Shown here piece by piece: positions 1 through 13,331 of a stretch of 64,000 nucleotides of DNA. Each line of letters opens with the position of its first letter. Positions within the stretch are counted from its first letter, which is position 1. The notes beneath the pieces were generated by a model. The model was given only the letters and a program-made list of their open reading frames with translations, was not told the DNA's origin and did not search any database. Origin of the DNA: Pseudomonadota bacterium (lineage in GTDB: Bacteria; Pseudomonadota; Gammaproteobacteria; Burkholderiales; Rhodocyclaceae); NCBI GenBank assembly GCA_018241685.1, contig JAFEDJ010000019.1, forward strand, positions 1,265 to 65,264. Reading direction: 5' to 3'. The position numbers and the translations under genes are program-made.

Positions 1-1
1 T

Positions 2-166
2 AAGAAGCGAAACTTTGTCGCCGAACGCCTCACCGAGACGTTCCAGTTCTATCTGGACTCGCTCGGTGAACTTCTTTTGTTCGGGGGCATAGTCTTCAAA
101 AAAGTAATAGACAAACAACTTCGCTTCGGGCTCGACAGTCCCAAGGTACGTTTGTGTAACCCACAT
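2..166 (-). CDS. Hypothetical cassette protein, 5' part only (MWVTQTYLGTVEPEAKLFVYYFFEDY...), runs off the window
   Basis: ATG at 166 with GGAG 8-11 nt upstream; frame open to base 2; lies directly after the attC-like site at 191-259. Confidence 0.6.
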   Translation of the reverse strand, partial: MWVTQTYLGTVEPEAKLFVYYFFEDYAPEQKKFTERVQIELERLGEAFGDKVSLL

Positions 167-190
167 TATAACACTCCGATATGATATGAC

Positions 191-259
191 GCCCAATGTT
201 TGAATTCACCGGCCTTGCGCGGCTTTATGCGAAAGTTCCGGTGGAATGATGGTGCCTCA
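191..259 (-). mobile_element. Degenerate attC-like site 1
   Basis: Minus strand reads CCATC-ATTCCAC-CGG...TTCGCATAAAGCCGCGCAAG...CCGGT-GAATT-CAAAC-ATTGGGC. It is an imperfect palindrome with an L''/L' extra base; R' is ATTGGGC (GTTRRRY with G>A) and R'' is eroded. Confidence 0.65.
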
Positions 260-269
260 CTGGAAGGGG

Positions 270-1235
270 CTAGGAGTCAGCTTTGGGTGGCTTGGCTAGG
301 AAGTAGTCCAGACGGCCAATAGGCGAGTAAGGCTTCGCGAGCTTTATGACGGCCCACTTGCTGCCTGCATGAAACACACTCATGGCAGGAACTCGATACT
401 GCATCTCCCGAATCACCAAATGTTCTTTGGTGCCTAAGTCGCGAAGAATCCATTGTTCAAGATACTTGCGTGCTCCCACCTCGCCATCCAGCATGAAGTA
501 GATATTATCGAGGACGTCTTGTACGGTTGTGTCGGGGCCTATCTCGATGTGTTTCACACGTGGGGCTTCGGACTTCATATTGAGGTCTATGGCTACGTTG
601 TACCGGGCGTTGGATGCTGAGGGTAACGCGCCGTTGTCCGCCGTAGCGTTCATTACCTGCGCAAAGCGACGATCAAGATACTCTCGAAGCGTGTCCATCG
701 CCTGCGCGAGCGAAGGATTTGGAGGGGATGTAGACACAATCGCGTCATCCGACTTCTCCCGTGTGAGTGCTGCGACGGCTTCCTCTAGAACAGGGCGCGC
801 CATTCCCTCATCAAAAGGAATCTGATGCATGGCTAGGAGCTTCTCGGCGAAGCGCTTGAGTGAGTCGTAGTCTGCAAGTTGGAACGTCTGGTACATCGCG
901 AGAGGAAAGGGAACATCGGCAACGCTATCAATACCAACGCAGACAGGTATGACGGCACAGTTTATTTGTGCTGCTCCGAACCCTGCTTCGAACAACAGCC
1001 AAGGTCGGTTAACGCTCTGTGGAGTAAGCAGTACCACCAGCGCTCTGCTGTCAGCGATTTGACGGCGTATTTCGTCAAGCCAGACTTGACCAGGACGAAG
1101 CCCACCGCTGGGGCCATCATCAGAAGAGTGCCACACAGAAATTTGTCCGAGCGTGAGGCGCTGTACTGCTTGAGCAATGGCCTTTGCTCTCTCGCGATCA
1201 CGCGAGTCGTGACTGAGGAACAGTTTGTGAGGCAT
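270..1235 (-). CDS. TIR-domain protein (TIR_2-like) with a predicted C-terminal beta-grasp/ubiquitin-like domain
   Basis: N-terminal KLFLSH..RD, VW, ALVVLLTPQS..RPWLLFEAG with the catalytic Glu; C-terminal IEIGPDTTVQDVLDNI...WILRD...GSKWAVI resembles the ubiquitin strand-helix pattern. Confidence 0.8.
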   Translation of the reverse strand: MPHKLFLSHDSRDRERAKAIAQAVQRLTLGQISVWHSSDDGPSGGLRPGQVWLDEIRRQIADSRALVVLLTPQSVNRPWLLFEAGFGAAQINCAVIPVCVGIDSVADVPFPLAMYQTFQLADYDSLKRFAEKLLAMHQIPFDEGMARPVLEEAVAALTREKSDDAIVSTSPPNPSLAQAMDTLREYLDRRFAQVMNATADNGALPSASNARYNVAIDLNMKSEAPRVKHIEIGPDTTVQDVLDNIYFMLDGEVGARKYLEQWILRDLGTKEHLVIREMQYRVPAMSVFHAGSKWAVIKLAKPYSPIGRLDYFLAKPPKADS

Positions 1236-1310
1236 CGGTGGTCCAGTATAGAAAGTTCAGTATTTTCAGCTACTGCTTGTGCTGAAGTGCTACATCGATA
1301 TCCGGAAGGT

Positions 1311-1400
1311 GCATAGCGTTTTTGCATGTCCGAATTTCAAGTAATGCAGACAGCGTCGAGTCGGCCGGTTTTTTACTGGATGCAGCGGATGATCGGTCGG
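1311..1400 (-). mobile_element. Possible degenerate long attC-like site 2
   Basis: Minus strand ...ATCCG..CCAGTAA...TTACTTG..TCGGAC...CAAAAAC-GCTATGC; inverted arms AGTAA/TTACT and TCCG/CGGA; R' GCTATGC (GTTRRRY with T>C); lies between two cassette genes. Confidence 0.4.
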
Positions 1401-1577
1401 AGTCCGGGATTTGACCGAGAAACAGTAGAACATCAAGGACTGAGGATCGACTTCGCCGTGCATCGTTGCTGTGCCTGTAGTTCGGGGGATAAAGCTAGGA
1501 GAGGTGAATGGCCTGTTCGTTCACTGGGTACTGTATCAGTCGAGAGATCAATTACATTGTTGTATATAAGCCACGCT

Positions 1578-2135
1578 TCATATGGAATGACTTTCTGGAT
1601 ACCGGCTGTACAAGCGATTCTGCAAACGTGCTAGTTCCTTCATTGTTTTCATGTACTCCCGTTCGAGCTTCTTTGGCAGGGATATATAGCCGTGTTGGTC
1701 GGCCAGGTTGCCCGTGTTCAAGATTTCAAATCTTCTCTTGGCCAAGTAGAGGAAGCGGGTGACGTCGTGATCTTTGACGAGAGGCTGTCGGAGATTATCA
1801 ACCTGCCTTCCGATGTATTTTCTGTTTGGGTCAGGAAGGAAGGTGATGACATCAAACCGGCGCTCCCGAGAAGAAATGTCAATGTACTCGCCAGTTGGAC
1901 TTAACCAGACGGCATGAAACTCAGCCTCGATGAATACACCCGGACGCTCCCAGATGGCCCAGCCAATCACCTGTTCGCCACCAAAGGACGAGACGTGCCC
2001 TGGAAGGATAGAGAAGCACTCGTTCTCTGGTTGGTTTGGGGGTGGTTGGCAGACGACGGTCGCAGGTACTTGCTCGGGTACGATGCCACAACAAAACTCT
2101 CTGACATGCAGAGCATTAGCAGGGGCAGCACGCAT
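1578..2135 (-). CDS. Hypothetical protein with a transglutaminase/papain-like Cys-His-Asp motif set
   Basis: NECF (C40), GWAIW, AEFHAVW (H74), GEYIDI (D86); start moved to ATG 2135 because the track's start lies inside the attC-like site. Confidence 0.6.
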   Translation of the reverse strand: MRAAPANALHVREFCCGIVPEQVPATVVCQPPPNQPENECFSILPGHVSSFGGEQVIGWAIWERPGVFIEAEFHAVWLSPTGEYIDISSRERRFDVITFLPDPNRKYIGRQVDNLRQPLVKDHDVTRFLYLAKRRFEILNTGNLADQHGYISLPKKLEREYMKTMKELARLQNRLYSRYPESHSI

Positions 2136-2146
2136 AGGGAAATGAC

Positions 2147-2215
2147 CTCTATCATTTGACATGAGCGGCATGGTCGGGCTTGCCGGGACATATCCGCTCG
2201 ATGGAAGGTGGCGTC
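2147..2215 (-). mobile_element. Degenerate attC-like site 3
   Basis: Minus strand CCTTC-CATCGAG-CGGATATGTCCCGGCAAGCCCGACCATGCCG-CTCATG-TCAAAT-GATAGAG. It is a classic attC hairpin with the extra base in L''; R' is GATAGAG; it abuts the kwaB stop codon. Confidence 0.7.
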
Positions 2216-3128
2216 ACACTTGGGTTGCGTCTGGTACGTCGTAGATGAAGTCAGTGACTTCGCTTAGCAGTCGATGGTCAAGCAGTACTTGCATGATTGC
2301 TTTTGTCGTCTGGTCGCAAGGGACGAGTTGCCCTGTTTGTGGATCAAAGTTCAGCCCCCAGTTTCGTCGTGTGTTGACAGTTTGAACCGCATTGAGGAAG
2401 CCGGGGCGCCTAAAAAGCGCCCGCTCCTCAATTCGAGCCATGCGCCTTAGTTGAATCGAGTTCGTTCCAACGTGATCAATTAGAGGCTGCATGTTGGTAA
2501 ACAAGTTTGCAAAGTTCTGGTCTTGCTGAAGTCCAACGAAGGCCTGGGCATAAGAAGCCCGGTGCTCCATCGCCGACTCGAAGGCGCGTTTGCTCGCGAT
2601 GAAAAGGCCTTGCTGGTGTGCGTAAAAATCAAAGGTCTTCTCGATCGCAAAGGCGTTATCCTCAGCTGCAGACAACTCGCCATTTCGAAAAACGATGTTG
2701 ATATGTGTCTTCAGATATGAGGTCTTCCAGTTGCTCGCAGTCTTCTTGACGGCGTAGACGACTTGGCCATTGCAAACGAACTTAACAAGGTAGCCGCCCG
2801 CGTTCTTGAGATCCTTGATCGATTGGACTCGGCAGTCAGGCTCTGGGCGGTCGACTCGTGCCTTGAGGTACTCAAAGTCGCTGCCCGCTAATTGGGTGGT
2901 TAGACAGCTGTTTTCATTGTTTTGAGCGAGGTATGAGTAGGCTGCATACTCCGTAATTCGATTCACTTCGCTTCGCACTACACCAAGAAGCAATGCGTTC
3001 AGTGCTTCGTCAGTTTGAACGTAGTGCGCGGAAAATTTATATGCAGTAGAGCTTCGTTTGTAGACCCAAAGATGGATATGACTATTTTCAAAGTCGAATG
3101 CTCTAAGTGAAGCAAATGTTTGCTGCAT
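2214..3128 (-). CDS. kwaB: Kiwa anti-phage protein KwaB (DUF4868-like)
   Basis: 304 aa soluble protein with LW.YK N-terminus, FAIEKTFDF, FE..M..R and LRRMARI motifs; its ATG directly follows the TAG of the kwaA-like gene. Confidence 0.8.
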   Translation of the reverse strand: MQQTFASLRAFDFENSHIHLWVYKRSSTAYKFSAHYVQTDEALNALLLGVVRSEVNRITEYAAYSYLAQNNENSCLTTQLAGSDFEYLKARVDRPEPDCRVQSIKDLKNAGGYLVKFVCNGQVVYAVKKTASNWKTSYLKTHINIVFRNGELSAAEDNAFAIEKTFDFYAHQQGLFIASKRAFESAMEHRASYAQAFVGLQQDQNFANLFTNMQPLIDHVGTNSIQLRRMARIEERALFRRPGFLNAVQTVNTRRNWGLNFDPQTGQLVPCDQTTKAIMQVLLDHRLLSEVTDFIYDVPDATQV

Positions 3129-3713
3129 CTACTTGTCCCTGAGTATGTAGAAGTCTTGGACGGTCTGCCCCATCTGCTCACCGATCTCAAGGTTGCCGTA
3201 CTTAAGAACGCGAACATCCTTTTCTATGCCATTGATAACAATCGTTGCTTCGTACAGTTTCCACCCGAATATCAGAAGGAGCGGATTCATGAGGATTTGT
3301 CCCGACTTCAGTGTTATGGCAAACATCCAGAGTAGAAAGACTCCGAATCCTATGAGTTTCTGTGGATCACCGTAGGCTATTCCCATGAACGAAACAACGT
3401 ATGGGAAGGTATAGTTAATGATCTCGTTTGGTGTCGCCTTCATCCGCTTTACGTCTATCAAGAACGGACATCTAATTCTCAGAAGGGAACTCTTCGCGAG
3501 AAGCGTCGCCGCCGCAGTGACCGCTAGAAATGAGATGGATAAGACCGGGTTATCAAACGGTACGAACAGACATTCACTAGCTTTGAGGCTTGTGGTTGTA
3601 CAAAAAGGACGTGCCCACCACTGTGCCGATATGTCCTGCATCGCAAGAATGATCGCGAGTGGAAAGTAGGAGCCTAAGAAGATTAGGAGCCCTGGTATCA
3701 GGTGAAATTGCAT
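3129..3713 (-). CDS. kwaA: Kiwa anti-phage membrane protein KwaA
   Basis: About 4 TM segments; SYFPL, NYTFPYVVSF and NPLLLIFGWKLYE motifs; coupled to kwaB. Confidence 0.8.
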   Translation of the reverse strand: MQFHLIPGLLIFLGSYFPLAIILAMQDISAQWWARPFCTTTSLKASECLFVPFDNPVLSISFLAVTAAATLLAKSSLLRIRCPFLIDVKRMKATPNEIINYTFPYVVSFMGIAYGDPQKLIGFGVFLLWMFAITLKSGQILMNPLLLIFGWKLYEATIVINGIEKDVRVLKYGNLEIGEQMGQTVQDFYILRDK

Positions 3714-3758
3714 TGCAGGATGTTAATATTCAAGCGTGGTTCAGTGGTTGTTTGTGAT

Positions 3759-3826
3759 GTCCAACGTCTGAGTTTACTGGTCTGCGCGGTTTGTTGCGCA
3801 GGTCCGGTGGCGTGATGAGGTGGGGA
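3759..3826 (-). mobile_element. attC-like site 4 (intact GTT core)
   Basis: Minus strand CCCCAC-CTCATC-ACGCCAC-CGGACCTGCGCAACAAACCGCGCAGACCAGT-AAACT-CAGAC-GTTGGAC; same repeat family as site 1; R' is a perfect GTTRRRY. Confidence 0.7.
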
Positions 3827-3858
3827 TCGGTACGGAAAATTATTAGCCGTATACTTAG

Positions 3859-4341
3859 CTATTCATCAAAGCCATGAATAATTGACTTGGCAATACAGGT
3901 GCAATCGATGGCAACTCCTGGGAGTAGATAACCTGCTTCCGTAAGCAGCCCAAGGTTTGATTCGAATCGCTGACCAGAAAATCGGGCATGCGACGCATTG
4001 GGGTTGTTCTTCCTTAAACCGCAGGTGGTTGCTGTCCAAATGCATTTGGAAATGCCAAGGTCTTGTTTTCGTACTTGTTCTTTTCGCGCGGCGGCGATAT
4101 TGACGAAGTATCTGGATACAGCTGCGGCCTGACTCTTCTCCAGCTTGTAGCGTGCCGTAACTTCCTTTGCGAGCGAATGTAGATCTCGACCACATTCATA
4201 CACCAAAATACCAAATTCGCTTTTTTCGTCAAATTGAAGAAGAGAAAAATAATCCTTGGCTATCTGCACAGATTGCTCCGGCGAAACCTTGAGTCTCTCT
4301 TCAAAGTCTTTGGCAGTGTATGAAGGGTATCCATTTGGCAT
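3859..4341 (-). CDS. Hypothetical protein with a MuF/SPP1-gp7-like (phage minor head protein) C-terminal motif
   Basis: CIW.......H..FSGQRF...G......LPG..IDCTC...II matches the MuF pattern Y.W...H...G..F...PG..INCRC. Confidence 0.55.
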   Translation of the reverse strand: MPNGYPSYTAKDFEERLKVSPEQSVQIAKDYFSLLQFDEKSEFGILVYECGRDLHSLAKEVTARYKLEKSQAAAVSRYFVNIAAARKEQVRKQDLGISKCIWTATTCGLRKNNPNASHARFSGQRFESNLGLLTEAGYLLPGVAIDCTCIAKSIIHGFDE

Positions 4342-4664
4342 TCACAGTGCCTTTGCTTTTCGGAAGAATTTTAAGAACACGCGAACTCCAATATTTCAAG
4401 CCGACCGGGGGCTATCTCCAACGTAAACCTAATTGTCGCCTTCGTCATTCCACATATGTGGAGCTGGATTGATCCGTGGGGCGTTGCTGGCGCTCCGTCT
4501 TCATAAAGGCGTCAGTAACAAGGACTACAACCCGTCATCATCCGCCCGATTCTCACGTCTGCCGATTCTCAGCAGAATGGCATTTATCCTGTCAGTTTCA
4601 CTATGCACTGCGTCACTCGCGTGCTTCTCCACGGACTGCTTTGCTGCCCCATCAATCGTTCTAC

Positions 4665-4694
4665 TTGACGGTCGTCCAGCACTGGTTCGATACT
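4665..4694 (+). promoter_or_regulatory. Putative sigma70 promoter of the c4 operon
   Basis: TTGACG-N18-GATACT just upstream of the a1/b1 target region. Confidence 0.4.
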
Positions 4695-4757
4695 CCACCG
4701 CGTCACCTAAACAATGGTGATCGGGTGTAGGAACCCGGATTGCAAAGGCCGATGAAG

Positions 4758-4780
4758 GCCGCGTTTTGACGCGGCTTTTT
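4758..4780 (+). terminator. Rho-independent terminator between the a1/b1 sites and the c4 RNA
   Basis: GCCGCGT-TTTG-ACGCGGC followed by TTTTT. Confidence 0.7.
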
Positions 4781-4808
4781 CTTGTCGGAGTACGGTTGCG
4801 CCCTTTCA

Positions 4809-4888
4809 ATGGCGGGCCGTGCGGGGCAGCCGTGAGGCTGGCCGGTTCCTTTGCCCGGTATTCCTACCCCCGCACGGTTCCGCCGCCC
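4809..4888 (+). ncRNA. c4 antisense RNA (P1/P7 C4, P4 CI-like)
   Basis: Closing stem GGCGGGCCGTGCGGGG/CCCCGCACGGTTCCGCC; CAGCC-GTGA-GGCTG GNRA hairpin; exposed CCTTTGC (4848-4854) and TTCCTAC (4861-4867) are complementary to GTAGGAA/GCAAAGG upstream (4727, 4742) and downstream (4891, 4922). Confidence 0.8.
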
Positions 4889-4939
4889 CCGTAGGAAGGG
4901 GTGGCGGAGATGCAAATCGCAGCAAAGGAGCAACACCTC

Positions 4940-5050
4940 ATGACCATTCACGCCGAAGGGCGCGCAGACGTGCGCGTGCCGATTGCATCTGTTTCTTTCG
5001 CTTCACATTCAGCTCATTCGTCGCACGTGACGAGGAGGGCCAGGGCATGA
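4940..5050 (+). CDS. 36-aa peptide in the icd-like position after c4
   Basis: AAGGAG RBS overlapped by a c4 target; MTIHAEGRADVRVPIASVSF...; its stop overlaps the next ATG (ATGA). Confidence 0.5.
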   Translation: MTIHAEGRADVRVPIASVSFASHSAHSSHVTRRARA

Positions 5051-5334
5051 GCACGCCGATGCGCTTTCCCGCCCCCGCGAGCCCGATTTATGTTCTTGCC
5101 AGCGCGGCTGACGCGCTCGCCCTCACCGATCAACTCACCGCACGACAGGCTCAACTACAAGCGCTCCTTGCGATGACCCATGGCAACGCGGGGGATGTCT
5201 TCCGGCGCATGGATGTAGATTGCCAGGAGAACTACCTGTGGGCCTGCGCGATGATTGCGGGGGAGTTGCGGGAACTGATGGAAGCGATTCAGACTAGGTG
5301 GCGTGAAGAGAGGGCAGTGCACATCAAGGAGTGA
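5047..5334 (+). CDS. 95-aa helical hypothetical protein (QLQALL...QENYLWAC), c4-controlled
   Basis: ATGA coupling to the upstream peptide and GAGGAG upstream; corresponds to the 3' part of track ORF 4819..5334. Confidence 0.6.
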   Translation: MSTPMRFPAPASPIYVLASAADALALTDQLTARQAQLQALLAMTHGNAGDVFRRMDVDCQENYLWACAMIAGELRELMEAIQTRWREERAVHIKE

Positions 5335-5342
5335 TGGCGGGA

Positions 5343-5757
5343 ATGTTCATGTTGCCGCCCCCTTGATCATCGAGCGCTCGGCAACTTCTTGATAGCAGCC
5401 GGCAACATGCTTCGTTCACCCGGCAGGCAAGCATGTTGCCGGGTGAACATTCGATGTTGGTGCTGCAGCATTGAATACGCGCTTCAGCGCATTGAGTGCT
5501 CAGGTATCAATATTGAACATTCAATACGCTGATGGTTTATGTTCGGCCGTGAACATTGAATGTTAAGACCGCCGTATAGCATGTAGACGTCGCAATGATT
5601 GATGTTGCGACGTCAACTTTTTTCGTGGACAGCGACGCATGACATATGGAGCCGCTTACATCGAAAGCGCGGCCGTCAACATCGATGGAGGCGCCGGCAA
5701 CATTCGATGTTGCGCCCGCAACGATTCAGCCGCGGGTTTCATCGTTGATCAATGTTG
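5343..5757. repeat. Non-coding array of AACAT/ATGTT half-sites and nested inverted repeats
   Basis: 15 AACAT/ATGTT copies counted; GCAACAT-TCG-ATGTTGC at 5697-5713; 14-bp inverted repeat 5399-5412/5429-5442; 10-bp inverted repeat GACGTCGCAA/TTGCGACGTC at 5586-5614. Confidence 0.8.
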
Positions 5758-5819
5758 ATGGAATATACATCCCTTGTCATCATGCGTGCTCTGATTGAGT
5801 GGGCTCGAGGGAGAAGTCG

Positions 5820-8800
5820 ATGTTGCGTCATCTATCGCGTCGCGGTTTCGGGCTGGTGCCCTTGCTGCTGGTGCTTGCCGCGCTCGCTGCGGCGGGTGTG
5901 TTTGTCGCCAAGACGCAGCAATCCGATGAGGCGGAGTCTGTGGACGGGCCGTTCCAGATTGCGGATTTCGCCAATCGTGACTTCGAGGGCTCGCCGGCGC
6001 TGGCGCTGAGCTTCACGCATCCGATGGATGCGCGGCGGGATTACGACGGGGCGATCCAGGTGTTCGAGATGCCGCCCCGCACGGGTGAGGCCAAGCCGCA
6101 CACTCAAGACGACGAGGACGCCGACAATCAGGGCGAGGGCACGCCCGGCAGCGGCAATCCGCAGGTCAGTACGGCCCCGGCGGATGTGGCGATCGACGGC
6201 GGCAAGCTGGTGAAGGGCGCCTGGGTGGTGGGGGACAACCCGCGCATCCTGTATTTCCCGCACATCAAGCCGCAAACCCGTTACGTGGTGCGCGTGGCGG
6301 CGGGGCTGCCGTCGAAGGCCGGCCAGACGTTGGCGGAAGCCAGCAGTTATTCGGTGGTCACCGCCGTCGTCTCGCCGGCCTATTACTTCGCCAGCCGTGG
6401 CATGGTGCTGCCGGCCAAGCAGAACGGCGGGCTGCCGGTGGTCACGGTCAACGTGCCGGAGGTGGATGTCCAGTTCCTTCGCGTCAAGCCGGACCAGTTG
6501 CCACGCTTCCTCGACAAGGTGATCAGCGGGCCGCGTCCGCAGCGGGGCAAGCGCCAGCAGAATAACGACGGCTACGATTACGATGAAGAGTACGACGGCG
6601 ACGAGGACTGGCGCGCGACCGATCTCAAGGGGGCTATCGACAACTGGTCGCTCGACAATTTGCACAGCCTGACGGAGAGCGTGTTCACCGGCCGCTTCCT
6701 GACCGAGCAGAAGCCCAACAAGCGCAACGTCACTTTCCTTCCGGTCGAGGACATCAAGGAGCTTCGCGAGCCCGGCATCTACATCGCGGTGATGAGCCAG
6801 CCGAACCGTTTCCGCTACGACTATCAGGTCACTTATTTCTATGTCAGCGATCTCGGCTTGAGTACCCGGCTGTTCGCCAAGGGGGCCGATGCCTACGTCA
6901 GCTCGCTGACCACCGGCAAGGCGATGGCGGGGGTCGAGGTGGCCTGGATGGATGAGAACGCCAAGGTCCTGGCGCGCGCCGAGACCGACAGCAACGGACG
7001 GGCCCCCTTTGCGGAGCGGCCGGCTGCCGCCAAGCTCATTCTGGCGCGTAACGGCCAGCAGATCTCGTTGATTGCACTGAAGGAGCCGGCGCTGGATCTT
7101 TCGGAATACGACATCGCGGGCCTGCCCGGTCGGCCTGTGCGCTTGTTTGCGTACTCCGGTCGCAACCTGTATCGACCGGGCGAGAGCTTCGATCTGTCCG
7201 TATTGGCGCGGGATGCGGACGGCCGCGCCGTACCGCCACAGCCGATCCAGGCCATCCTCAGGCGGCCGGACGGCAAGAGCCAGTTCACTGCCACCTGGCA
7301 ACCGGACGGCAAGCTGGGGGGCTATTACCAGAACCGCATCGCGCTGCCGGTGGATGCGCCGACAGGCTCATGGACGCTGGAGCTGCGTGCCGACCCGGCC
7401 GACAAGCTGGCCACCACCAGCTTCCGTTTCGGCGTCGAGGAGTTTTTGCCGGAGCGCATGAAGCTCGATCTGGCCAGCAAGCAGGCCACGGTGTCGCCCA
7501 ATGACACGCTGACCATCGCCGTCAAGGGTGCTTATCTCTACGGCGCGCCGGCGGCTGGCAACCAGTTGCTCGGGGTTGCCGTCTTCGAGCGCCAGAAGAA
7601 TCCGCTGGCTCAGAAGCTGCCCGGTTTCGAGTTTGGCGACACCAATGAGGAGAGCCAGCGCCAGCGCGTGGAACTGGACCAGAGCCAGCTCGACGAGAAC
7701 GGTGAGCTGGCGCTCGACGTGGATCTCGCGCCGGCCAAGGACAAGCGGTCGCCCTACACCGTGCGGACCACGCTGAGCCTGCTGGAGAGCGGCGGCCGGC
7801 CGGTGGTGCGCAATTTCGAGCGGGTGATCTGGCCGGCGCCGGTGTTGGTGGGTGTCCGCCCGCTGTTCACCGGCGACTACGCCCGCGAAGGCAGCATCGC
7901 GCAGTTCGAGGTGGTGCGCGCCAACGCCGAGGGCAAGTTGAGCGCAGGCAGCGGGCTGCCGGTGCGCCTGTTCCGCGAGAACCGCGATTACTACTGGCGC
8001 TTCGACGACCAGCGCGGCTGGCATTCGGGTTTCACGGAGACCGACGAACTGGTGAACACCGCGAGCGTCAGCATTCCCGATGGCGGACGCGGCAAGCTCG
8101 GTGTGCCGGTCAAATACGGGCGTTACCGCCTGGAGATCACCGATCCGGCCACGCAGCAGACGACGAAATACCGCTTCTACGCCGGCTGGAGCGCCCGTGG
8201 CGACGAAACCCAGGGCGTCCGTCCCGATCGTGTCGCACTGAAGTTCGACAAGCCGGCCTACCAGGATGGCGAGACCGCCAAGCTGAGCATCACGCCGCCG
8301 CACGCCGGTGAGGCGCTGATCACCGTCGAGGCGGACAAGACCCTGTGGGTCAGGCGCATCCCGGTGGCCCTTGATGGCACGACGGTCGAGATTCCGGTGG
8401 ACAAGGCGTGGAAGCGCCACGACCTGTATGTGTCGGTCAGCGTGCTGCGGCCGGGCAGTGCTGGCGAAAAGGTCACCCCGGCGCGGGCCTTGGGCCTGGC
8501 GCACCTGCCGCTTGAACGGGGCGAGCGCAAGCTGGCGGTGAGTCTCGATGCGCCGAAGAAGATGCTGCCGGACACGCGCCTCAAGGTGAAGGTCAAGGCG
8601 CCCGGCGCTGCCGGCCAGCAGGCGGTGGTCACGCTGTCCGCCGTCGATGTGGGCATCCTCAACATCACGCGCTACACGACGCCCGACCCGCACGGCCACT
8701 TCTTCGGCAAGCTGCGTTACGGCGCCGACCAGTACGACGTGTACGGCCGTCTGATCGAGAAGATGGGCGGCCAGAAGGGCAAGCTCAAGTTCGGTGGCGA

Positions 8801-10964
8801 TGCCGCGCCGAAGGCGACCAAGAGCCTGCCCAAGAAGGTGCGCCTGGTGGATCTGTTCTCCGGGCCGGTGCTGCTCAACGCGCAGGGCGAAGCCGAGATC
8901 GCCCTCGACGTGCCTGATTTCAACGGCACGCTGCGCCTGATGGCGGTGGTCGCGGCACCCGAGAAGTTCGGCAACGCCGAGGCGGAGACGGTTGTTGCCG
9001 CGCCGCTGGTGGCCGAGCTGATGACGCCGCGCTTCCTGACGGTAGGTGACAACGCCACCATCGCCCTCGACCTGCACAACCTGTCCGGTGCGGCGCAGAA
9101 GCTCAAGGTGCGCATCGAGAATGCGGACGGCCTGAAGATCCAGAACGCCGAGCGCGAGCTGGACCTCAAGGATCAGCAGAAGCAGACGCTGCGCTTCCCG
9201 CTCGAAGCGGGCAACGCCTTCGGCCTGACCGATGTGCGGGTCCACGTCAGCAGCGTTGCCGGCCTCAAGCTGGAGCGCAGCTTCGGCCTGCAGGTCCAGG
9301 CGGCGACGCCGCAACAGCAGGTGCTCAAGCTGCTTGCCGTCGGGCCGGGCGAGACGGTGGAGGTGAAGGACGCGGAACTGGGCGGCTTCATCCGGAGCAC
9401 CGTGCAATCGCATCTGGTGCTCTCCAACAAGGCGCCGATCGACGTGCGCAGCGCCATCCAGGGGCTGCTGACCTATCCCTACGGCTGCGCAGAGCAGACG
9501 ACCAGCACGGCCTACCCGCATGTGCTGATCGACGAGGAGGGGGCCCGGCTGTTCGGGCTCAAGGCCTACACCCGCGCGCAGCGGGAAGACATGCTGGAGA
9601 AGGCCATCGCCCGGCTTGGCGCGATGCAGGCGCCGAACGGCGGCTTCAGCCTGTGGGGCAATGTGTCCGAGTACCAGTACTGGCTGTCGGCCTATGTCGG
9701 CAACTTCCTGCTCGATGCCCGCGAACAGGGCTTCCAGGTGCCGGAGGCGATGCAGAAGAAGACCCAGGAATTCCTGCTCAAGTATCTGCAGGAAGGCGTG
9801 GCCGGTCTGCCGACCGGCAAGCTGAGCTACAACGAGAACGGCTGGCAGGATTACCGCTTCGGCGGTTCCGGCCGTTTCGGCGTGCTTGCCTACGGCGCCT
9901 ATGTGCTGGCTCGTGAATCCAAGGCGCCGCTGTCCACGCTGCGCCAGATGTTCGAGGTCCGCAGCCAGGCGCACTCGGGGCTGGCCCTGGTGCAGCTCGG
10001 CCTGGCGCTCAAGCTGATGGGCGATGAAACCCGTGCCCAGACGGCGCTCGCCGAAGGTGTGAAAAAGAGCCGTGACAATGGCTACTGGTGGGGTGACTAC
10101 GGCAGCCCGCTGCGGGATGCGGCGCTGTCCTACGCGCTGCTCGACCGCCACAAGGTGAAGGTCGACGGCCGTGACAATCTGGTTGCCGTTGCTGCCGCCG
10201 AACTGGGCAAGAACCGTTACACCAGCACCCAGGAGAAGCTCGCGCTGTTCCTGCTCGGCCGCAACTTCACCAAGGCCGGCGAAGGCGAGGGCGGGTGGAC
10301 GGCGGAAGTGCTCGGCAAGGACACGCCGGAAGTCATCAACGGTGCTGGCACGCTGATCCGGCCGCTGTCGGCAACGGCCTTGCAGGGCGGCGTTCGTATC
10401 CGGAACACCTACAAGGACAAGCTCTACCTGCAACTCAGCCTGAGCGGCAATCCGGCGAAGATGCCGGCCAACCGCGACGACGCCATCGCATTGAGCCGCG
10501 ACCTGTTCGAAGCCGACGGCACGCCGCTGAAGAGCCGCACGCTGAAGGTTGGTGAATCGGTCATCGTGCGCATCAAGGTCAATCCGCACAGCTGGGTCAA
10601 TACCGGCATGGTGGTGGACCACATCCCGGCCGGCCTGGAGATCGAGAACCTCAATATCGTCCAGGGTGAAGGCATGGGCAGCACGACGATCGAGGGCATC
10701 AACCCGGCCGAGGCGATGCAGGACCCGCGCATCCAGCACGTCGAGTTCCGCGATGACCGCTTCGTGGTGGCCGCCCGGCTGCACGGCAAGCTCAGCCTGT
10801 TCTACCGCGCACGGGTCGTCACCCCCGGCAAGTTCGTCTTCCCACCGCTGTACGCCGAGGACATGTACCGCCCGGATGTCTATGGCCTTAGCACTGGCGA
10901 GGCGACCCTGACGGTGAGCGACGGCAAGGACAAGCCGGCTGCCGCAGCGCCGGCCAAACCGTAA
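5820..10964 (+). CDS. yfhM: Bacterial alpha-2-macroglobulin (YfhM/MG2 family)
   Basis: About 1715 aa; YRPGE MG2 motif, VEEFLPERM, thioester motif YPYGCAEQ, C-terminal MYRP; paired with pbpC. Confidence 0.95.
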   Translation: MLRHLSRRGFGLVPLLLVLAALAAAGVFVAKTQQSDEAESVDGPFQIADFANRDFEGSPALALSFTHPMDARRDYDGAIQVFEMPPRTGEAKPHTQDDEDADNQGEGTPGSGNPQVSTAPADVAIDGGKLVKGAWVVGDNPRILYFPHIKPQTRYVVRVAAGLPSKAGQTLAEASSYSVVTAVVSPAYYFASRGMVLPAKQNGGLPVVTVNVPEVDVQFLRVKPDQLPRFLDKVISGPRPQRGKRQQNNDGYDYDEEYDGDEDWRATDLKGAIDNWSLDNLHSLTESVFTGRFLTEQKPNKRNVTFLPVEDIKELREPGIYIAVMSQPNRFRYDYQVTYFYVSDLGLSTRLFAKGADAYVSSLTTGKAMAGVEVAWMDENAKVLARAETDSNGRAPFAERPAAAKLILARNGQQISLIALKEPALDLSEYDIAGLPGRPVRLFAYSGRNLYRPGESFDLSVLARDADGRAVPPQPIQAILRRPDGKSQFTATWQPDGKLGGYYQNRIALPVDAPTGSWTLELRADPADKLATTSFRFGVEEFLPERMKLDLASKQATVSPNDTLTIAVKGAYLYGAPAAGNQLLGVAVFERQKNPLAQKLPGFEFGDTNEESQRQRVELDQSQLDENGELALDVDLAPAKDKRSPYTVRTTLSLLESGGRPVVRNFERVIWPAPVLVGVRPLFTGDYAREGSIAQFEVVRANAEGKLSAGSGLPVRLFRENRDYYWRFDDQRGWHSGFTETDELVNTASVSIPDGGRGKLGVPVKYGRYRLEITDPATQQTTKYRFYAGWSARGDETQGVRPDRVALKFDKPAYQDGETAKLSITPPHAGEALITVEADKTLWVRRIPVALDGTTVEIPVDKAWKRHDLYVSVSVLRPGSAGEKVTPARALGLAHLPLERGERKLAVSLDAPKKMLPDTRLKVKVKAPGAAGQQAVVTLSAVDVGILNITRYTTPDPHGHFFGKLRYGADQYDVYGRLIEKMGGQKGKLKFGGDAAPKATKSLPKKVRLVDLFSGPVLLNAQGEAEIALDVPDFNGTLRLMAVVAAPEKFGNAEAETVVAAPLVAELMTPRFLTVGDNATIALDLHNLSGAAQKLKVRIENADGLKIQNAERELDLKDQQKQTLRFPLEAGNAFGLTDVRVHVSSVAGLKLERSFGLQVQAATPQQQVLKLLAVGPGETVEVKDAELGGFIRSTVQSHLVLSNKAPIDVRSAIQGLLTYPYGCAEQTTSTAYPHVLIDEEGARLFGLKAYTRAQREDMLEKAIARLGAMQAPNGGFSLWGNVSEYQYWLSAYVGNFLLDAREQGFQVPEAMQKKTQEFLLKYLQEGVAGLPTGKLSYNENGWQDYRFGGSGRFGVLAYGAYVLARESKAPLSTLRQMFEVRSQAHSGLALVQLGLALKLMGDETRAQTALAEGVKKSRDNGYWWGDYGSPLRDAALSYALLDRHKVKVDGRDNLVAVAAAELGKNRYTSTQEKLALFLLGRNFTKAGEGEGGWTAEVLGKDTPEVINGAGTLIRPLSATALQGGVRIRNTYKDKLYLQLSLSGNPAKMPANRDDAIALSRDLFEADGTPLKSRTLKVGESVIVRIKVNPHSWVNTGMVVDHIPAGLEIENLNIVQGEGMGSTTIEGINPAEAMQDPRIQHVEFRDDRFVVAARLHGKLSLFYRARVVTPGKFVFPPLYAEDMYRPDVYGLSTGEATLTVSDGKDKPAAAAPAKP

Positions 10965-10967
10965 GGC

Positions 10968-13313
10968 ATGACGCAACGCGCAGCATGGTGGATTGCCGGG
11001 CGCGGATGGCTGAGACGCCGTCCGCGCTGGCAGTGGGGTGTGTTGCTCGCGCTGCTCGTATTGGCTGGGCTGGACCATGCTTTTCCACCGCCGGTGCCCG
11101 GCCGTGATGCGCCGAACGCGCTGCTCATCGTCGCCCGCGACGGCACACCGCTGCGGGCCTTTCCGGATCGCGACCATGTGTGGCGCCATCCGGTGGCGCT
11201 GGCGGATGTATCGCCGCTCTATCTTGAGGCGCTGGAGCGCTACGAGGACCGCTGGTTCCGCTGGCATCCTGGCGTCAATCCGCTGGCCCTGACGCGGGCG
11301 GCGTGGCAGTGGCTGCGCCATGGGCGCATCGTCTCCGGCGGTTCGACGCTGACCATGCAGGTCGCCCGCATCATCGAGCCGACGCCGCGGACGCTGCTTG
11401 GCAAGGGCCGGCAGATCCTGCGCGCGCTGCAGCTCGAGCTGCACTATTCGAAGGACGAGATCCTCGCCCTCTACGTCAATTACGCGCCGATGGGCGGCGT
11501 GCTCGAAGGGGTCGAGGCGGCCAGCCGGGCTTATCTCGGCAAGCCGGCCAAACGCTTGAGCCACGCGGATGCGGCGCTGCTGACCGTGCTGCCGCAGATG
11601 CCGTCGCGCCTGCGGCCGGATCGTCAGCCGGCCCGGGCGCGGGTGGCGCGCGACAAGGTGGTGCACCGCATGGCCGGTGTGTGGCCGGACAGCGACATCC
11701 GCGATGCGCTGCAGGAGCCGATCATCGCCCAGACGGCGCGCGATCCGCTGCTTGCGCCCTTGCTCGCCGAGCGGCTGCGCAAGGACGCGCGTGGCCGGCA
11801 GCGTATCGACACGACCATCGACGCCCAGACCCAGCAGACCGTCGAGCTGCTGCTCACCAGCCGGCTCGCCGCCTTGCCGCCGCGGGTGTCGATGGCTGCG
11901 CTGGTGGTGGATAACGCAACGCTGGAGGTTCGCGCTTATGCGGGCTCGGCCGATTTCGGCGATACCGACCGCTTCGCCTTCGTGGACATGGTGCGTGCGT
12001 CGCGGTCGCCCGGCTCGACGCTCAAACCCTTCCTGTACGGGCTGGCGCTCGATGAAGGGCTGATCCATTCGGAGTCCCTGCTTGCCGATGTGCCGCAATC
12101 CTTCGGCGGCTATCAGCCGGGCAATTTCCAGCAGTCCTTCCACGGGGCGGTTAGCGTGTCCGAAGCCTTGAGCAAGTCCCTCAACGTGCCGGCCGTCGAG
12201 GTGCTCGACCGGCTGGAGCCGGGCCGTTTCGTCGCCGCCCTGCGGCGGGGTGGCCTGAAGCTGGATTTTCCCAAAGGCGAAGCGCCCAACCTGTCGGTGA
12301 TCCTCGGCGGTGCCGGTACGACGCTCGAGCAACTGGTCGGCGCCTACACGGCCTTTGCCCGCGAGGGGGTTTCCGGTAAGCCGCGTTACCGAACGGATGA
12401 ACCGCTGGTCGAACAGCGCATGCTGTCGCCCGGCGCGGCCTTCATCATCCGCGATGTGCTCGAATCCGGCGGACCGGTGGGCCGCGCGGTCGAGCAGGGG
12501 CCGGGCATCCGCCGCGGCATTGCGTGGAAGACCGGGACCAGCTTCGGCTTCCGCGATGCGTGGTCGATCGGCGTGTCGGACCGCTATACGGTCGGTGTGT
12601 GGATCGGCCGCCCGGACGGCACGCCGAACCCCGGTTTCTTCGGCGCCAACATCGCGGCGCCGCTGTTGGTCGATATCTTCTCGGCAGTGGATGGTCAGCC
12701 GGCTACGACCCGAACGCCGCCGCCTTCCGTGCATCAGGAAAAGATCTGCTGGCCGCTCGGCACGCGTTTTCAGCCGGAGGAAGAGGCCCTCTGCCATCGC
12801 CAGGCTATCGCCTGGGTGCTCAACGACACCGCGCCGCCAACCTTTCCCGACCGGCTGCGCAGCGGCGAGATGCGCTACGCCTACGAGGTCGACGCGGTCA
12901 GCGGCTTGCGCGTCACGGCGGCGTGCAGCACCCGCCCGCGCCGCCAGGTCGAGGCCGTGCATTGGCCGACCGCGCTGGACCCGTGGCTGAGCTCCGATCT
13001 GCGCGCCAAGGCGCAGCCGCCGGCGTGGGATGCCGGTTGTCAGAAGCAGGCCGAGCCGGACGCTGGTCTGAGCATCGTCGGTCTGAGCAGCGGTGAGGTG
13101 ATCAAGCGTCCGCGCCCTGATCAGGCGCCGGTGATCCGCCTCGAACTGCGCGGTCAGCGTGGGCAGGTTTATTGGCTGATCAACGGCCGGCTGGTCGCTC
13201 ACCGGCCCGCCACCCAGCCCTTGATTCAAACTCTGACCGAAACCGGCCGTGTCGACATCACCGCGATGGATGAGCAGGGCCGTTACGACCGGATCAGCGT
13301 CAGCGTGCGCTGA
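10968..13313 (+). CDS. pbpC: Penicillin-binding protein 1C
   Basis: EDRWF and GGSTLTMQVAR transglycosylase motifs, SxxK (GSTLKPF), SLN, KTGTS and a C-terminal PBP1C domain. Confidence 0.95.
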   Translation: MTQRAAWWIAGRGWLRRRPRWQWGVLLALLVLAGLDHAFPPPVPGRDAPNALLIVARDGTPLRAFPDRDHVWRHPVALADVSPLYLEALERYEDRWFRWHPGVNPLALTRAAWQWLRHGRIVSGGSTLTMQVARIIEPTPRTLLGKGRQILRALQLELHYSKDEILALYVNYAPMGGVLEGVEAASRAYLGKPAKRLSHADAALLTVLPQMPSRLRPDRQPARARVARDKVVHRMAGVWPDSDIRDALQEPIIAQTARDPLLAPLLAERLRKDARGRQRIDTTIDAQTQQTVELLLTSRLAALPPRVSMAALVVDNATLEVRAYAGSADFGDTDRFAFVDMVRASRSPGSTLKPFLYGLALDEGLIHSESLLADVPQSFGGYQPGNFQQSFHGAVSVSEALSKSLNVPAVEVLDRLEPGRFVAALRRGGLKLDFPKGEAPNLSVILGGAGTTLEQLVGAYTAFAREGVSGKPRYRTDEPLVEQRMLSPGAAFIIRDVLESGGPVGRAVEQGPGIRRGIAWKTGTSFGFRDAWSIGVSDRYTVGVWIGRPDGTPNPGFFGANIAAPLLVDIFSAVDGQPATTRTPPPSVHQEKICWPLGTRFQPEEEALCHRQAIAWVLNDTAPPTFPDRLRSGEMRYAYEVDAVSGLRVTAACSTRPRRQVEAVHWPTALDPWLSSDLRAKAQPPAWDAGCQKQAEPDAGLSIVGLSSGEVIKRPRPDQAPVIRLELRGQRGQVYWLINGRLVAHRPATQPLIQTLTETGRVDITAMDEQGRYDRISVSVR

Positions 13314-13331
13314 GGGCGCCGCCTCCGCGTG

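Follow-up and report, generated by a model that had tools for sequence, protein, structure and literature searches.

A stretch of 64,000 nucleotides from a Rhodocyclaceae genome (contig JAFEDJ010000019.1, assembly GCA_018241685.1; hereafter the window) carries at positions 4665–5334 a small module in which an antisense RNA of the C4 family precedes two overlapping open reading frames (ORFs). We consider it probable that this locus is a self-contained, self-repressing RNA switch of the c4/IsrK type on a Zoogloea chromosome. The initial annotation had described an intact c4-type antisense switch with an order like that of phages P1 and P7 (target pair a1b1, c4, target pair a2b2, leader ORF, payload), and this description holds: the promoter, target pairs, terminator, C4 RNA and ORFs all lie where it had placed them, the last target (b2, 4922–4929) covers the ribosome-binding site (RBS) of the 36-amino-acid ORF as it had claimed, and this ORF and the 95-amino-acid ORF share an ATGA overlap (5047–5050), in agreement with the translational coupling that it had proposed. 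Comparative sequence analysis establishes the RNA family and its structure, the four-way complementarity with its co-variation, the coupling geometry, and purifying selection confined to the second ORF.

Elements of the module

We searched the window with the Rfam models. The C4 model (RF01695), which the initial annotation had named as a check, matches 4805–4890 along the full length of the model (positions 1–87) at 69.9 bits, well above its gathering score (45), with E = 1.5e-11 over the whole window, and this is the sole above-threshold Rfam match in the 64 kb. Using RNAalifold on 19 copies of the element, we found 18 base pairs in C4, 7 of them with compensatory changes, which uphold the long closing stem and the two hairpins. 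The 5′ stem begins with GGC, as it does in two copies from Acinetobacter baumannii (PMC5320573). The recognition elements of the RNA, a′ and b′, are exactly complementary over 7–8 nucleotides to sites at 4727, 4742, 4891 and 4922. The arrangement GTAGGAA-N5-30-GCAAAGG occurs three times in the 64 kb, namely as the two target pairs and as the complement of the C4 loops, and in none of 100 shuffled sequences (chance expectation 0.00). The elements are as follows, with coordinates given as positions in the window and the module read on the + strand.

4665–4694, + strand: sigma-70-type promoter from a consensus scan, with -35 TTGACG (4665–4670), an 18-nucleotide spacer and -10 GATACT (4689–4694)
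4702–4721, + strand: leader hairpin 1 (GTCACC...GGTGA), from the Rfam isrK alignment
4722–4737, + strand: leader hairpin 2 (CGGG/CCCG), whose loop presents target a1
4727–4733, + strand: target a1, GTAGGAA, complementary to a′ UUCCUAC (4861–4867)
4742–4748, + strand: target b1, GCAAAGG, complementary to the b′ loop CCUUUGC (4848–4854)
4757–4783, + strand: intrinsic terminator after the a1b1 leader, stem 4758–4763/4770–4775, U-run 4776–4783
4805–4890, + strand: C4 antisense RNA (RF01695), 86 nucleotides, a long closing stem with two inner hairpins
4846–4854 and 4861–4867, + strand: C4 recognition elements, the b′ loop UUCCUUUGC and the single-stranded a′ UUCCUAC
4891–4897, + strand: target a2, GTAGGAA, directly 3′ of C4
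4922–4929, + strand: target b2, GCAAAGGA, overlapping the Shine-Dalgarno (SD) sequence AAGGAG (4925–4930) of ORF1
4940–5050, + strand: ORF1, a 36-codon leader ORF whose stop TGA (5048–5050) overlaps the ORF2 start codon
5032–5039, + strand: SD sequence of ORF2, GAGGAGGG, inside ORF1
5047–5334, + strand: ORF2, the 95-amino-acid payload, with the ATGA overlap with ORF1 at 5047–5050
5336–5359, + strand: possible 3′ stem-loop (GGCGG...CCGCC) just past the ORF2 stop, tentative and read from the sequence

We compared these elements among 23 copies, comprising the window copy and 22 further C4 copies in Zoogloea genomes. The promoter motifs CTTGAC[GC] and [GC]ATACT are invariant in 23/23 copies, and no conserved sequence precedes the -35 element. 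In paralogs, leader hairpin 1 shows compensatory changes (GTCACC/GGTGA versus GTCGCTG/CAGCGA). The terminator reads GCCGCG-TTTTGA-CGCGGC (4758–4775), then TTTTTCTT, and its hairpin is aligned as such by the Rfam isrK and Leu_leader models; a simple terminator scan of the window did not list it at 4757–4783. Hairpin and T-run are kept in the aligned copies and are weakest in L003a and L004. This terminator would release a short IsrK-like RNA of ~80 nucleotides. Past the ORF2 stop, G+C-rich hairpins follow in many paralogs. An in-frame extension of ORF2 to a GTG start (4819–5334, 171 amino acids) was rejected, because every homolog starts at the methionine of MSTP/MNTP behind a GGAGG-type SD sequence.

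The two ORFs differ strongly in constraint. ORF2 is under strong purifying selection, with a ratio of nonsynonymous to synonymous substitution rates (dN/dS) of 0.05–0.22 versus 0.36–1.05 for ORF1; between the window and L002, ORF2 is 91% and ORF1 53% identical. ORF1 is present in 20/23 copies, where it starts 45–52 nucleotides after C4, spans 36–42 codons and overlaps the ORF2 start with its stop. It is missing in L003a, L003b and L004, in which b2 lies directly on the ORF2 RBS. The ORF1 product is not hydrophobic and its sequence is unconstrained, and it gave no Pfam match and no significant PHROG match (best E = 0.077). Since ORF1 holds the ORF2 SD sequence and overlaps its start, we read it from its sequence features as a leader that delivers ribosomes to ORF2, a sequence-free coupling device and not a gene product. 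The initial annotation had counted two tiny genes here; the 95-amino-acid payload stands as one, and the 36-amino-acid ORF does not.

Loop–target pairs across the copies and the proposed switch

Close ORF2 homologs number 18, all from Zoogloea, Rhodocyclaceae or sludge metagenomes, and a genome scan returned 25 loci. At least nine copies are held by the isolate Zoogloea sp. LCSB751, and the metagenome-assembled genome (MAG) SZAS-76 holds 12 modules. One LCSB751 locus, L001, is collinear with window positions 4534–13314 at 94% identity, so the window comes from a close relative. C4 is matched by Rfam with at least 62.7 bits upstream of 19/19 close ORF2 homolog loci, and with two modules each in L001, L003 and L005 this amounts to the 22 further copies. 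A paralog in Z. ramigera, whose ORF2 is 48% identical, likewise has isrK and C4 in front.

For each copy, we took b′ from the loop of the second inner hairpin and a′ from the single strand after it, and sought their reverse complements in the flanks. In the 23 copies, a1 lies 70–85 and b1 58–72 nucleotides before C4, a2 starts 1–2 nucleotides past C4 in every copy, and b2 lies 27–34 nucleotides after C4, with the exception of L019, where it was read with one G-U pair. For b1, the exact-match search fell short in L012 and L017, and the site was read there with one G-U pair; with such pairs counted, b1 co-varies with b′ in 23/23 copies. The b2 site overlaps an AGGAG-type SD sequence of the next ORF in every copy. 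Each copy's own a1, b1, a2 and b2 sites match its own loops over 7–9 nucleotides at fixed distances, yet the recognition sequences themselves vary widely, with 9 a-types, 13 b-types and 19 combinations among the 23 copies. When every C4 was ranked against all flanks, each came first against its own (mean summed match 30.0 nucleotides for self versus 19.0 for non-self), and ties occurred solely between copies with the same pair in different genomes. On this comparison, in which two loops and four targets change together across 23 copies, the pairing of loops and targets is under selection, and the units provide comparative proof of the c4 pairing scheme. No pair repeats within LCSB751 (9 copies) or within SZAS-76 (12 copies). 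As each copy of a genome has a different pair, the copies should not cross-talk, and judging from these sequences about ten such switches could work side by side in one genome.

Units with the same pair in two genomes often share just the segment from the -35 element to the ORF2 stop, with unrelated flanks. This points to a mobile unit or to rapid turnover of the DNA around it, with the caveat that MAG contigs may be chimeric at a repeat of ~700 nucleotides. No direct repeats or target-site duplications of at least 9 nucleotides flank the unit. L001 (3154–10290) holds two tandem units 6.2 kb apart that have a common b′ and different a′; between them lie small genes on the - strand, encoding lipoproteins, an M48-like protein of 620 amino acids, a KTSC-like protein of 90 amino acids and a transposase-fragment fusion. 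Window positions 4432–4534 match the sequence upstream of the distal L001 copy and not that of the syntenic copy, a hint of recombination between units.

For the processing of C4, termination in the leader, repression and its trigger, we infer the following course. Transcription would start at the conserved sigma-70 promoter, and the leader would present the decoys a1 and b1 and end at the intrinsic terminator. A stop there would yield a short a1b1 RNA, the analogue of IsrK, and read-through would yield C4 together with the mRNA. By analogy with P1 and P7, in which RNase P cuts C4 from its precursor into a stable RNA of ~77 nucleotides, C4 would be excised from the read-through transcript. Its a′ and b′ elements would then pair with a2 and b2, occluding the ORF1 SD sequence; in P1, C4 pairing also leads to Rho-dependent termination. 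A block of ORF1 translation would block ORF2 synthesis too, because the ORF1 stop overlaps the ORF2 start and the ORF2 SD sequence lies in ORF1. The a1b1 sites may compete for C4, and expression would rise upon C4 decay or upon titration of C4, either by surplus a1b1 leader or by foreign RNA with the same sites. The prophage Gifsy-1 offers a precedent for terminator read-through, activation in trans by a short RNA and translational coupling, and there excess short IsrK raises translation >100-fold (PMC4825925).

Contigs 90–95% identical to the unit are present in four sludge or biofilm metatranscriptomes. Word depth over C4 reaches 127–157 in three runs and 64 in the fourth, compared with ~15–25 in the flanks, and short high-depth contigs end at the C4 3′ end. 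Such a peak would fit an abundant processed RNA, and collapsed paralogs or DNA carry-over would fit it equally.

Several points weigh against the proposed switch. The evidence for expression comes from metatranscriptome contigs of other strains, with a depth peak open to artefact. Several of the genomic contexts derive from MAGs, in which a repeat of ~700 nucleotides may give chimeric joins. At relaxed thresholds, the leader of the window copy aligns end to end with isrK (RF01394) at 42.0 bits, below the gathering score of 50, and c4-a1b1 (RF03163, of the same Rfam clan as C4), the second model named by the initial annotation, gives the window copy 19.4 bits, below its threshold of 46.7. In the minimum-energy fold of the read-through RNA, a1 and b1 pair with a′ and b′ in cis, which bears on the balance between decoy and target. 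The ORF2 RBS does not lie in a notably stable hairpin (z = +0.8), so the proposed coupling rests on overlap geometry and precedent. As for the leader, paralogs pass the isrK threshold in L008, L012, L014, L018 and L039 (51–58 bits) and the c4-a1b1 threshold in L003 (twice) and L014; alignment and layout agree in marking the window leader, by its sequence, as a divergent member of the isrK/c4-a1b1 type.

Payload, origin and genomic surroundings

ORF2 encodes a protein with the conserved motif DQLxARxxQLxALLxMTxGxxGxxFR...YLWAC. With the family alignment as input, AlphaFold2 predicts a helical hairpin (helices 23–42, 48–54 and 57–94; mean predicted local distance difference test score 74), and the protein is predicted to be soluble with a long C-terminal helix. 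Among 1.84 billion representatives, a profile search yielded 599 clusters (50% identity, E ≤ 1e-3), mostly of 80–110 amino acids; the family is large and without annotation. Even with 49 family members scanned, it gave no sequence match in Pfam, PHROG, NCBIfam or the PDB. Foldseek found nothing significant against the PDB and BFVD, with generic helical hairpins as the best matches (E 0.39). No match was obtained by tblastn in 50,697 phage records, and plasmids and viral contigs likewise gave none; no frameshifted copy was seen among L001–L019. A 112-amino-acid ORF behind C4 in a Ralstonia P2-like phage was rejected as a relative (hhalign probability 0.9%).

More distant members of the family point to small mobile elements. 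L028 reads tmRNA, integrase, homolog, int-alpA RNA, AlpA and PriCT_2/DUF3987 primase; L029 reads integrase, homolog, int-alpA RNA and HTH_17, with a ClpP/capsid fusion further on, in an element of ~9 kb; and L030 reads integrase fragment, HTH_17, DUF3987, capsid, small terminase, homolog and tRNA. L021–L024 adjoin tRNA genes or the int-alpA motif. Given these neighbours, the family belongs to the integrase or attachment (att) end of small phage satellites. C4 is absent from the distant-member loci L021–L024 and L028–L030. In the small int-alpA-primase satellites at L028 (8001–8774), L029 (8001–8736) and L024 (10001–11824), the homolog has the integrase on one side and the int-alpA RNA motif of Rfam on the other, and the payload family thus seems to be paired with structured regulatory RNAs in elements of more than one type.

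The RNA part has other relatives. A blastn search of 4660–5050 against phage records returned temperate Ralstonia (P2-like), Pseudomonas and Shiga toxin-converting phages, matching the RNA part only. In Pseudomonas phage YMC11/07/P54, isrK (61.5 bits) and C4 (59.9 bits) stand just upstream of the annotated anti-repressor Ant, which is the canonical use of the RNA part. Judged by sequence, the Zoogloea units combine a phage-type lock with a satellite-type payload. The initial annotation was right that the RNA layout mirrors the c4-icd-ant operon of P1 and P7, and the likeness does not extend to an icd/ant payload in a prophage immunity region, as the payload has no Pfam, PHROG or phage match.

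We also surveyed the surroundings for traces of such elements. The integrase similarity search covered P4-type integrases: tblastn with two satellite integrases matched distant satellite loci only, leaving the window and the ±10 kb around every copy empty. The annotated contexts of the copies contain no phage genes, with no integrase, alpA/primase or capsid/terminase gene in the window or within ±10 kb of the paralogs, and Rfam reported no tRNA in L001–L019. The initial annotation had placed the module outside any prophage, which these searches make plausible; as the island continues past position 1, the prophage and satellite survey covers its right part only. The Zoogloea units are best read as phage- or satellite-derived regulatory modules, now standing alone on the borders of variable low-GC defence islands.

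G+C content is 47–52% over the first 5.5 kb of the window and ~65% elsewhere, and all genes before the module (270–4341) lie on the - strand, pointing away from it.

270–1235, - strand: TIR-domain protein
1578–2171, - strand: 197-amino-acid protein, matching phrog_37148
2214–3128, - strand: KwaB, of a Kiwa system with KwaA
3129–3713, - strand: KwaA, of a Kiwa system with KwaB
3859–4341, - strand: 160-amino-acid protein with a weak head-morphogenesis PHROG match

A further ORF begins near 165 and continues past position 1, so that the defence array runs off the left window edge. To the left of 4534, the window and its closest relatives, L001 and L002, have nothing in common. The sole public contig with the window TIR gene (and Kiwa), Logan contig L031, covers ~200–4840 and stops inside C4, as expected because C4 belongs to a multicopy repeat; its other break, near window position 200, may mark a further repeat just left of the window.

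Similar surroundings recur among the copies. In 17/23 units, DNA of at most 57% G+C lies directly behind the promoter. Neighbours of the units include PARIS AriA/AriB (L014), Lamassu LmuA/LmuB (L016), an OLD/AriA-like ATPase (L015), a CHAT protein (L012), Septu PtuA/PtuB with a DUF1016 nuclease (L005/L032), a Hachiman-like PDC-M23B helicase with a Schlafen-like ATPase (L013/L033), an AAA_13 protein (L007/L026) and RT-12 RNA (L006); in another strain (L034), the L013/L033 unit stands beside a type I restriction-modification (R-M) system and AAA_13. The RT-12 RNA (Rfam RF03016, 72 bits; L006 10732–10848) lies ~435 nucleotides downstream of its unit in low-GC DNA and is probably part of a reverse-transcriptase-based system. 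The defence cargo next to units with the same pair (84–94% identical) differs between genomes or strains: the OLD-like ATPase versus Lamassu (L015 and L016), PARIS versus a 489-amino-acid protein of no known kind (L014 and L008), and the Hachiman-like helicase versus type I R-M (L033 and L034), with chimeric MAG contigs as a possible artefact.

On the other side of the module, the spacer between ORF2 and a 1721-amino-acid ORF (5799–10964) is unusually structured (5335–5798, -185 kcal/mol over 464 nucleotides). It contains palindromes of the AACAT-N3-ATGTT type (5443–5458, 5549–5564 and 5696–5711), a 17-nucleotide inverted repeat (5396–5412 with 5429–5445) and a strong terminator-like hairpin (5586–5614) with a T-run, elements that could be operators or an unrecognised small RNA. 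The part in common with the L001 tandem unit is 5335–5418 only.

The initial annotation had further placed the module where the integrase gene intI of an integron would be expected, and this was not borne out. No intI remnant was found at 4300–4700 (tblastn with the L017 IntI N-terminus, E ≤ 10), no attI match (AAC_AAD_leader) at 4300–5700 (E ≤ 10), and no attC-like RYYYAAC...GTTRRRY hairpin in 1–5900 or in nine paralogous loci by a pattern-plus-fold screen, which is not the IntegronFinder model. A single copy adjoins such DNA: in L017 (LCSB751, NZ_MWUM01000020), a class-1-like integron remnant (9018–9473) lies directly upstream of the C4 unit. It comprises the first 96 codons of intI followed by an in-frame stop (NF011946, 191 bits, profile positions 1–96), on the + strand like the unit, and an attI-type motif (Rfam AAC_AAD_leader, 61.4 bits) on the - strand, with small low-GC ORFs pointing the other way. 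A 43-nucleotide repeat of the attI region lies at 7545–7587. We take this remnant for a further type of mobile DNA next to a unit, not for a sign of integron membership.

Alternative explanations and known systems

The switch might have a further role that extends, and does not contradict, the reading above. ORF2 could be a growth inhibitor and C4 its RNA antidote, so that loss of the locus, shut-off of transcription by a phage, or phage RNA soaking up C4 would free ORF2, stabilising the island or killing infected cells; with loops so diverse, no single phage decoy RNA could neutralise every copy. We regard such an addiction or abortive-infection module as possible but doubtful. It is in keeping with the defence systems that adjoin most examined copies (Kiwa, TIR, PARIS, Lamassu, OLD-like, Septu, Hachiman-like, type I R-M, AAA_13 and RT-12), with the low-GC DNA behind the promoter of 17/23 copies, and with several orthogonal specificities per genome, since multicopy type I toxin-antitoxin families also have several copies per genome with cognate-only recognition. 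The P1 gene in the position of ORF1, icd, inhibits cell division. Yet ORF2, soluble, helical and 95 amino acids long, is unlike type I toxins: the locus encodes no hydrophobic toxin of <60 amino acids, and C4 lies on the same strand, upstream. The link of ORF2 to defence is one of neighbourhood, with no PADLOC-independent link, and c4 RNA is a stable species in P1, a poor fit to post-segregational killing.

More speculative, and in our view unlikely, is a wider version: a diversified family of RNA-locked effectors, with at least 19 orthogonal pairs on one C4 scaffold, that would travel with, stabilise or trigger alongside exchangeable anti-phage defence cargo. In this version the unit would serve in addiction or abortive infection with an RNA as antidote, decoy RNAs of phages or satellites would drive the diversification of its loops, and it would form the only conserved backbone of a so far unrecognised, integrase-less class of defence islets.

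Alternatively, C4 might act in trans as an immunity decoy against incoming phages or satellites with matching a and b sites, with ORF2 as a passenger. The c4 RNA sets the immunity specificity of P1 and P7, and PMC5320573 proposed a role of this kind for C4 RNAs encoded in the A. baumannii chromosome; the many specificities per genome and the related RNAs in Ralstonia and Pseudomonas phages would also suit it. However, ORF2 is under strong purifying selection in every copy, all four own targets of each copy co-vary with the loops, which a pure decoy would not need, and no phage or viral contig carries ORF2; no phage with matching a and b sites turned up either, none having been sought. We therefore consider this improbable. 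That the module is a decaying, functionless relic of a prophage or satellite immunity region is very unlikely: the phage-type RNA part, the satellite relatives of the payload and the lack of integrase or structural genes nearby would accord with decay, but 23 intact copies with an invariant promoter, kept RNA structure, four-way co-variation and the low dN/dS of ORF2 do not, and neither does the absence of frameshifts among L001–L019. Slightly harder still to credit is the idea that unlinked host mRNAs are the main targets of C4, which PMC5320573 put forward for the multicopy Group 1 small RNAs of A. baumannii, given that every copy has perfect cognate targets in its own flanks and that the 64-kb window holds no other a-b site pair. 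Least credible, and in this window already largely refuted, is an integron-related module that occupies the position of intI in front of a cassette array: genes 270–4341 all point away from the module and L017 has its intI and attI remnant, but the intI, attI and attC searches of the window were all empty, kwaA and kwaB form an ordinary two-gene operon, and just 1/23 copies lies beside an integron remnant, so that the units are not taken as parts of integrons.

We return to the self-repressing switch and its closest relatives. The c4-icd-ant operon (immI) of P1 and P7 has the same Rfam C4 family and the same order of a1b1, c4, a2b2, small first ORF and coupled payload. Further details of P1/P7 c4 are reportedly found in the work of Citron and Schuster (1990/1992). 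As summarised in PMC5320573, the b site covers the RBS and specificity resides in a few loop nucleotides, P1 and P7 differing by just four nucleotides in a′. In contrast to P1 and P7, the Zoogloea payload is by sequence no anti-repressor and the leader no Icd (no match in phage records or PHROG), the units do not appear to stand in a prophage, about ten orthogonal copies occur per genome, and an intrinsic terminator separates a1b1 from c4. Switches that work side by side without cross-talk are what heteroimmune elements need.

With the IsrK-STnc1160-orf45-anrP locus of the Salmonella prophage Gifsy-1, the unit has in common the isrK-like leader (42 bits in the window, 51–58 in paralogs), a small upstream ORF coupled to the payload, orf45 before anrP, and, on the proposed mechanism, terminator read-through with a short RNA and a long mRNA as its products and a stable processed RNA further downstream (PMC4825925). 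In Gifsy-1 the payload is an anti-repressor, which turns on a toxic antiterminator inside a prophage, whereas the Zoogloea payload is an unrelated 95-amino-acid protein, apparently outside any prophage. In satellite P4, the CI RNA, processed from the same transcript, pairs with sites up- and downstream of itself (seqA and seqC) and shuts off the downstream operon; CI acts mainly via transcription termination. The relatives of the payload suggest satellite ancestry for the Zoogloea units too, yet no P4-type integrase, primase or sid/psu gene lies near any copy, and satellites with the payload family carry the int-alpA RNA motif and not C4. A likeness of P4 CI RNA to IsrK has been noted (PMC4825925).

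The Group 1 small RNAs of A. baumannii are many chromosomal C4-family RNAs with a variable recognition region that seem to be cut from longer transcripts (PMC5320573). That study identified no targets for them, whereas each Zoogloea copy has its own flanking targets and a conserved payload. The type I families Ibs/Sib and Ldr/Rdl and the type III system ToxIN are associated with defence, and in them a small RNA keeps a linked protein off, an analogy and not a homology: C4 lies on the same strand, upstream of its target, and the payload is neither a small hydrophobic peptide nor an endoribonuclease.

C4 RNAs outside phages were catalogued in 2010 (PMC2864571), and the multicopy set of A. baumannii was described in 2016 with targets unknown (PMC5320573); full-text literature searches returned no paper that connects C4 RNAs with satellites, with defence islands or with the ORF2 family. 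Built on a single scaffold, the units would offer about 19 orthogonal translational repressors ready for use. They also tie an unannotated family of ~600 clusters to mobile-element regulatory regions, and they recur as a marker of variable defence islands in a wastewater bacterium. Should the payload prove to be a toxin or an anti-repressor, the module would be a new RNA-gated player in conflicts among phages, satellites and hosts. In summary, the lock is known from these systems; the payload, the orthogonal copy set with its cognate targets identified, and the defence-island setting are new.

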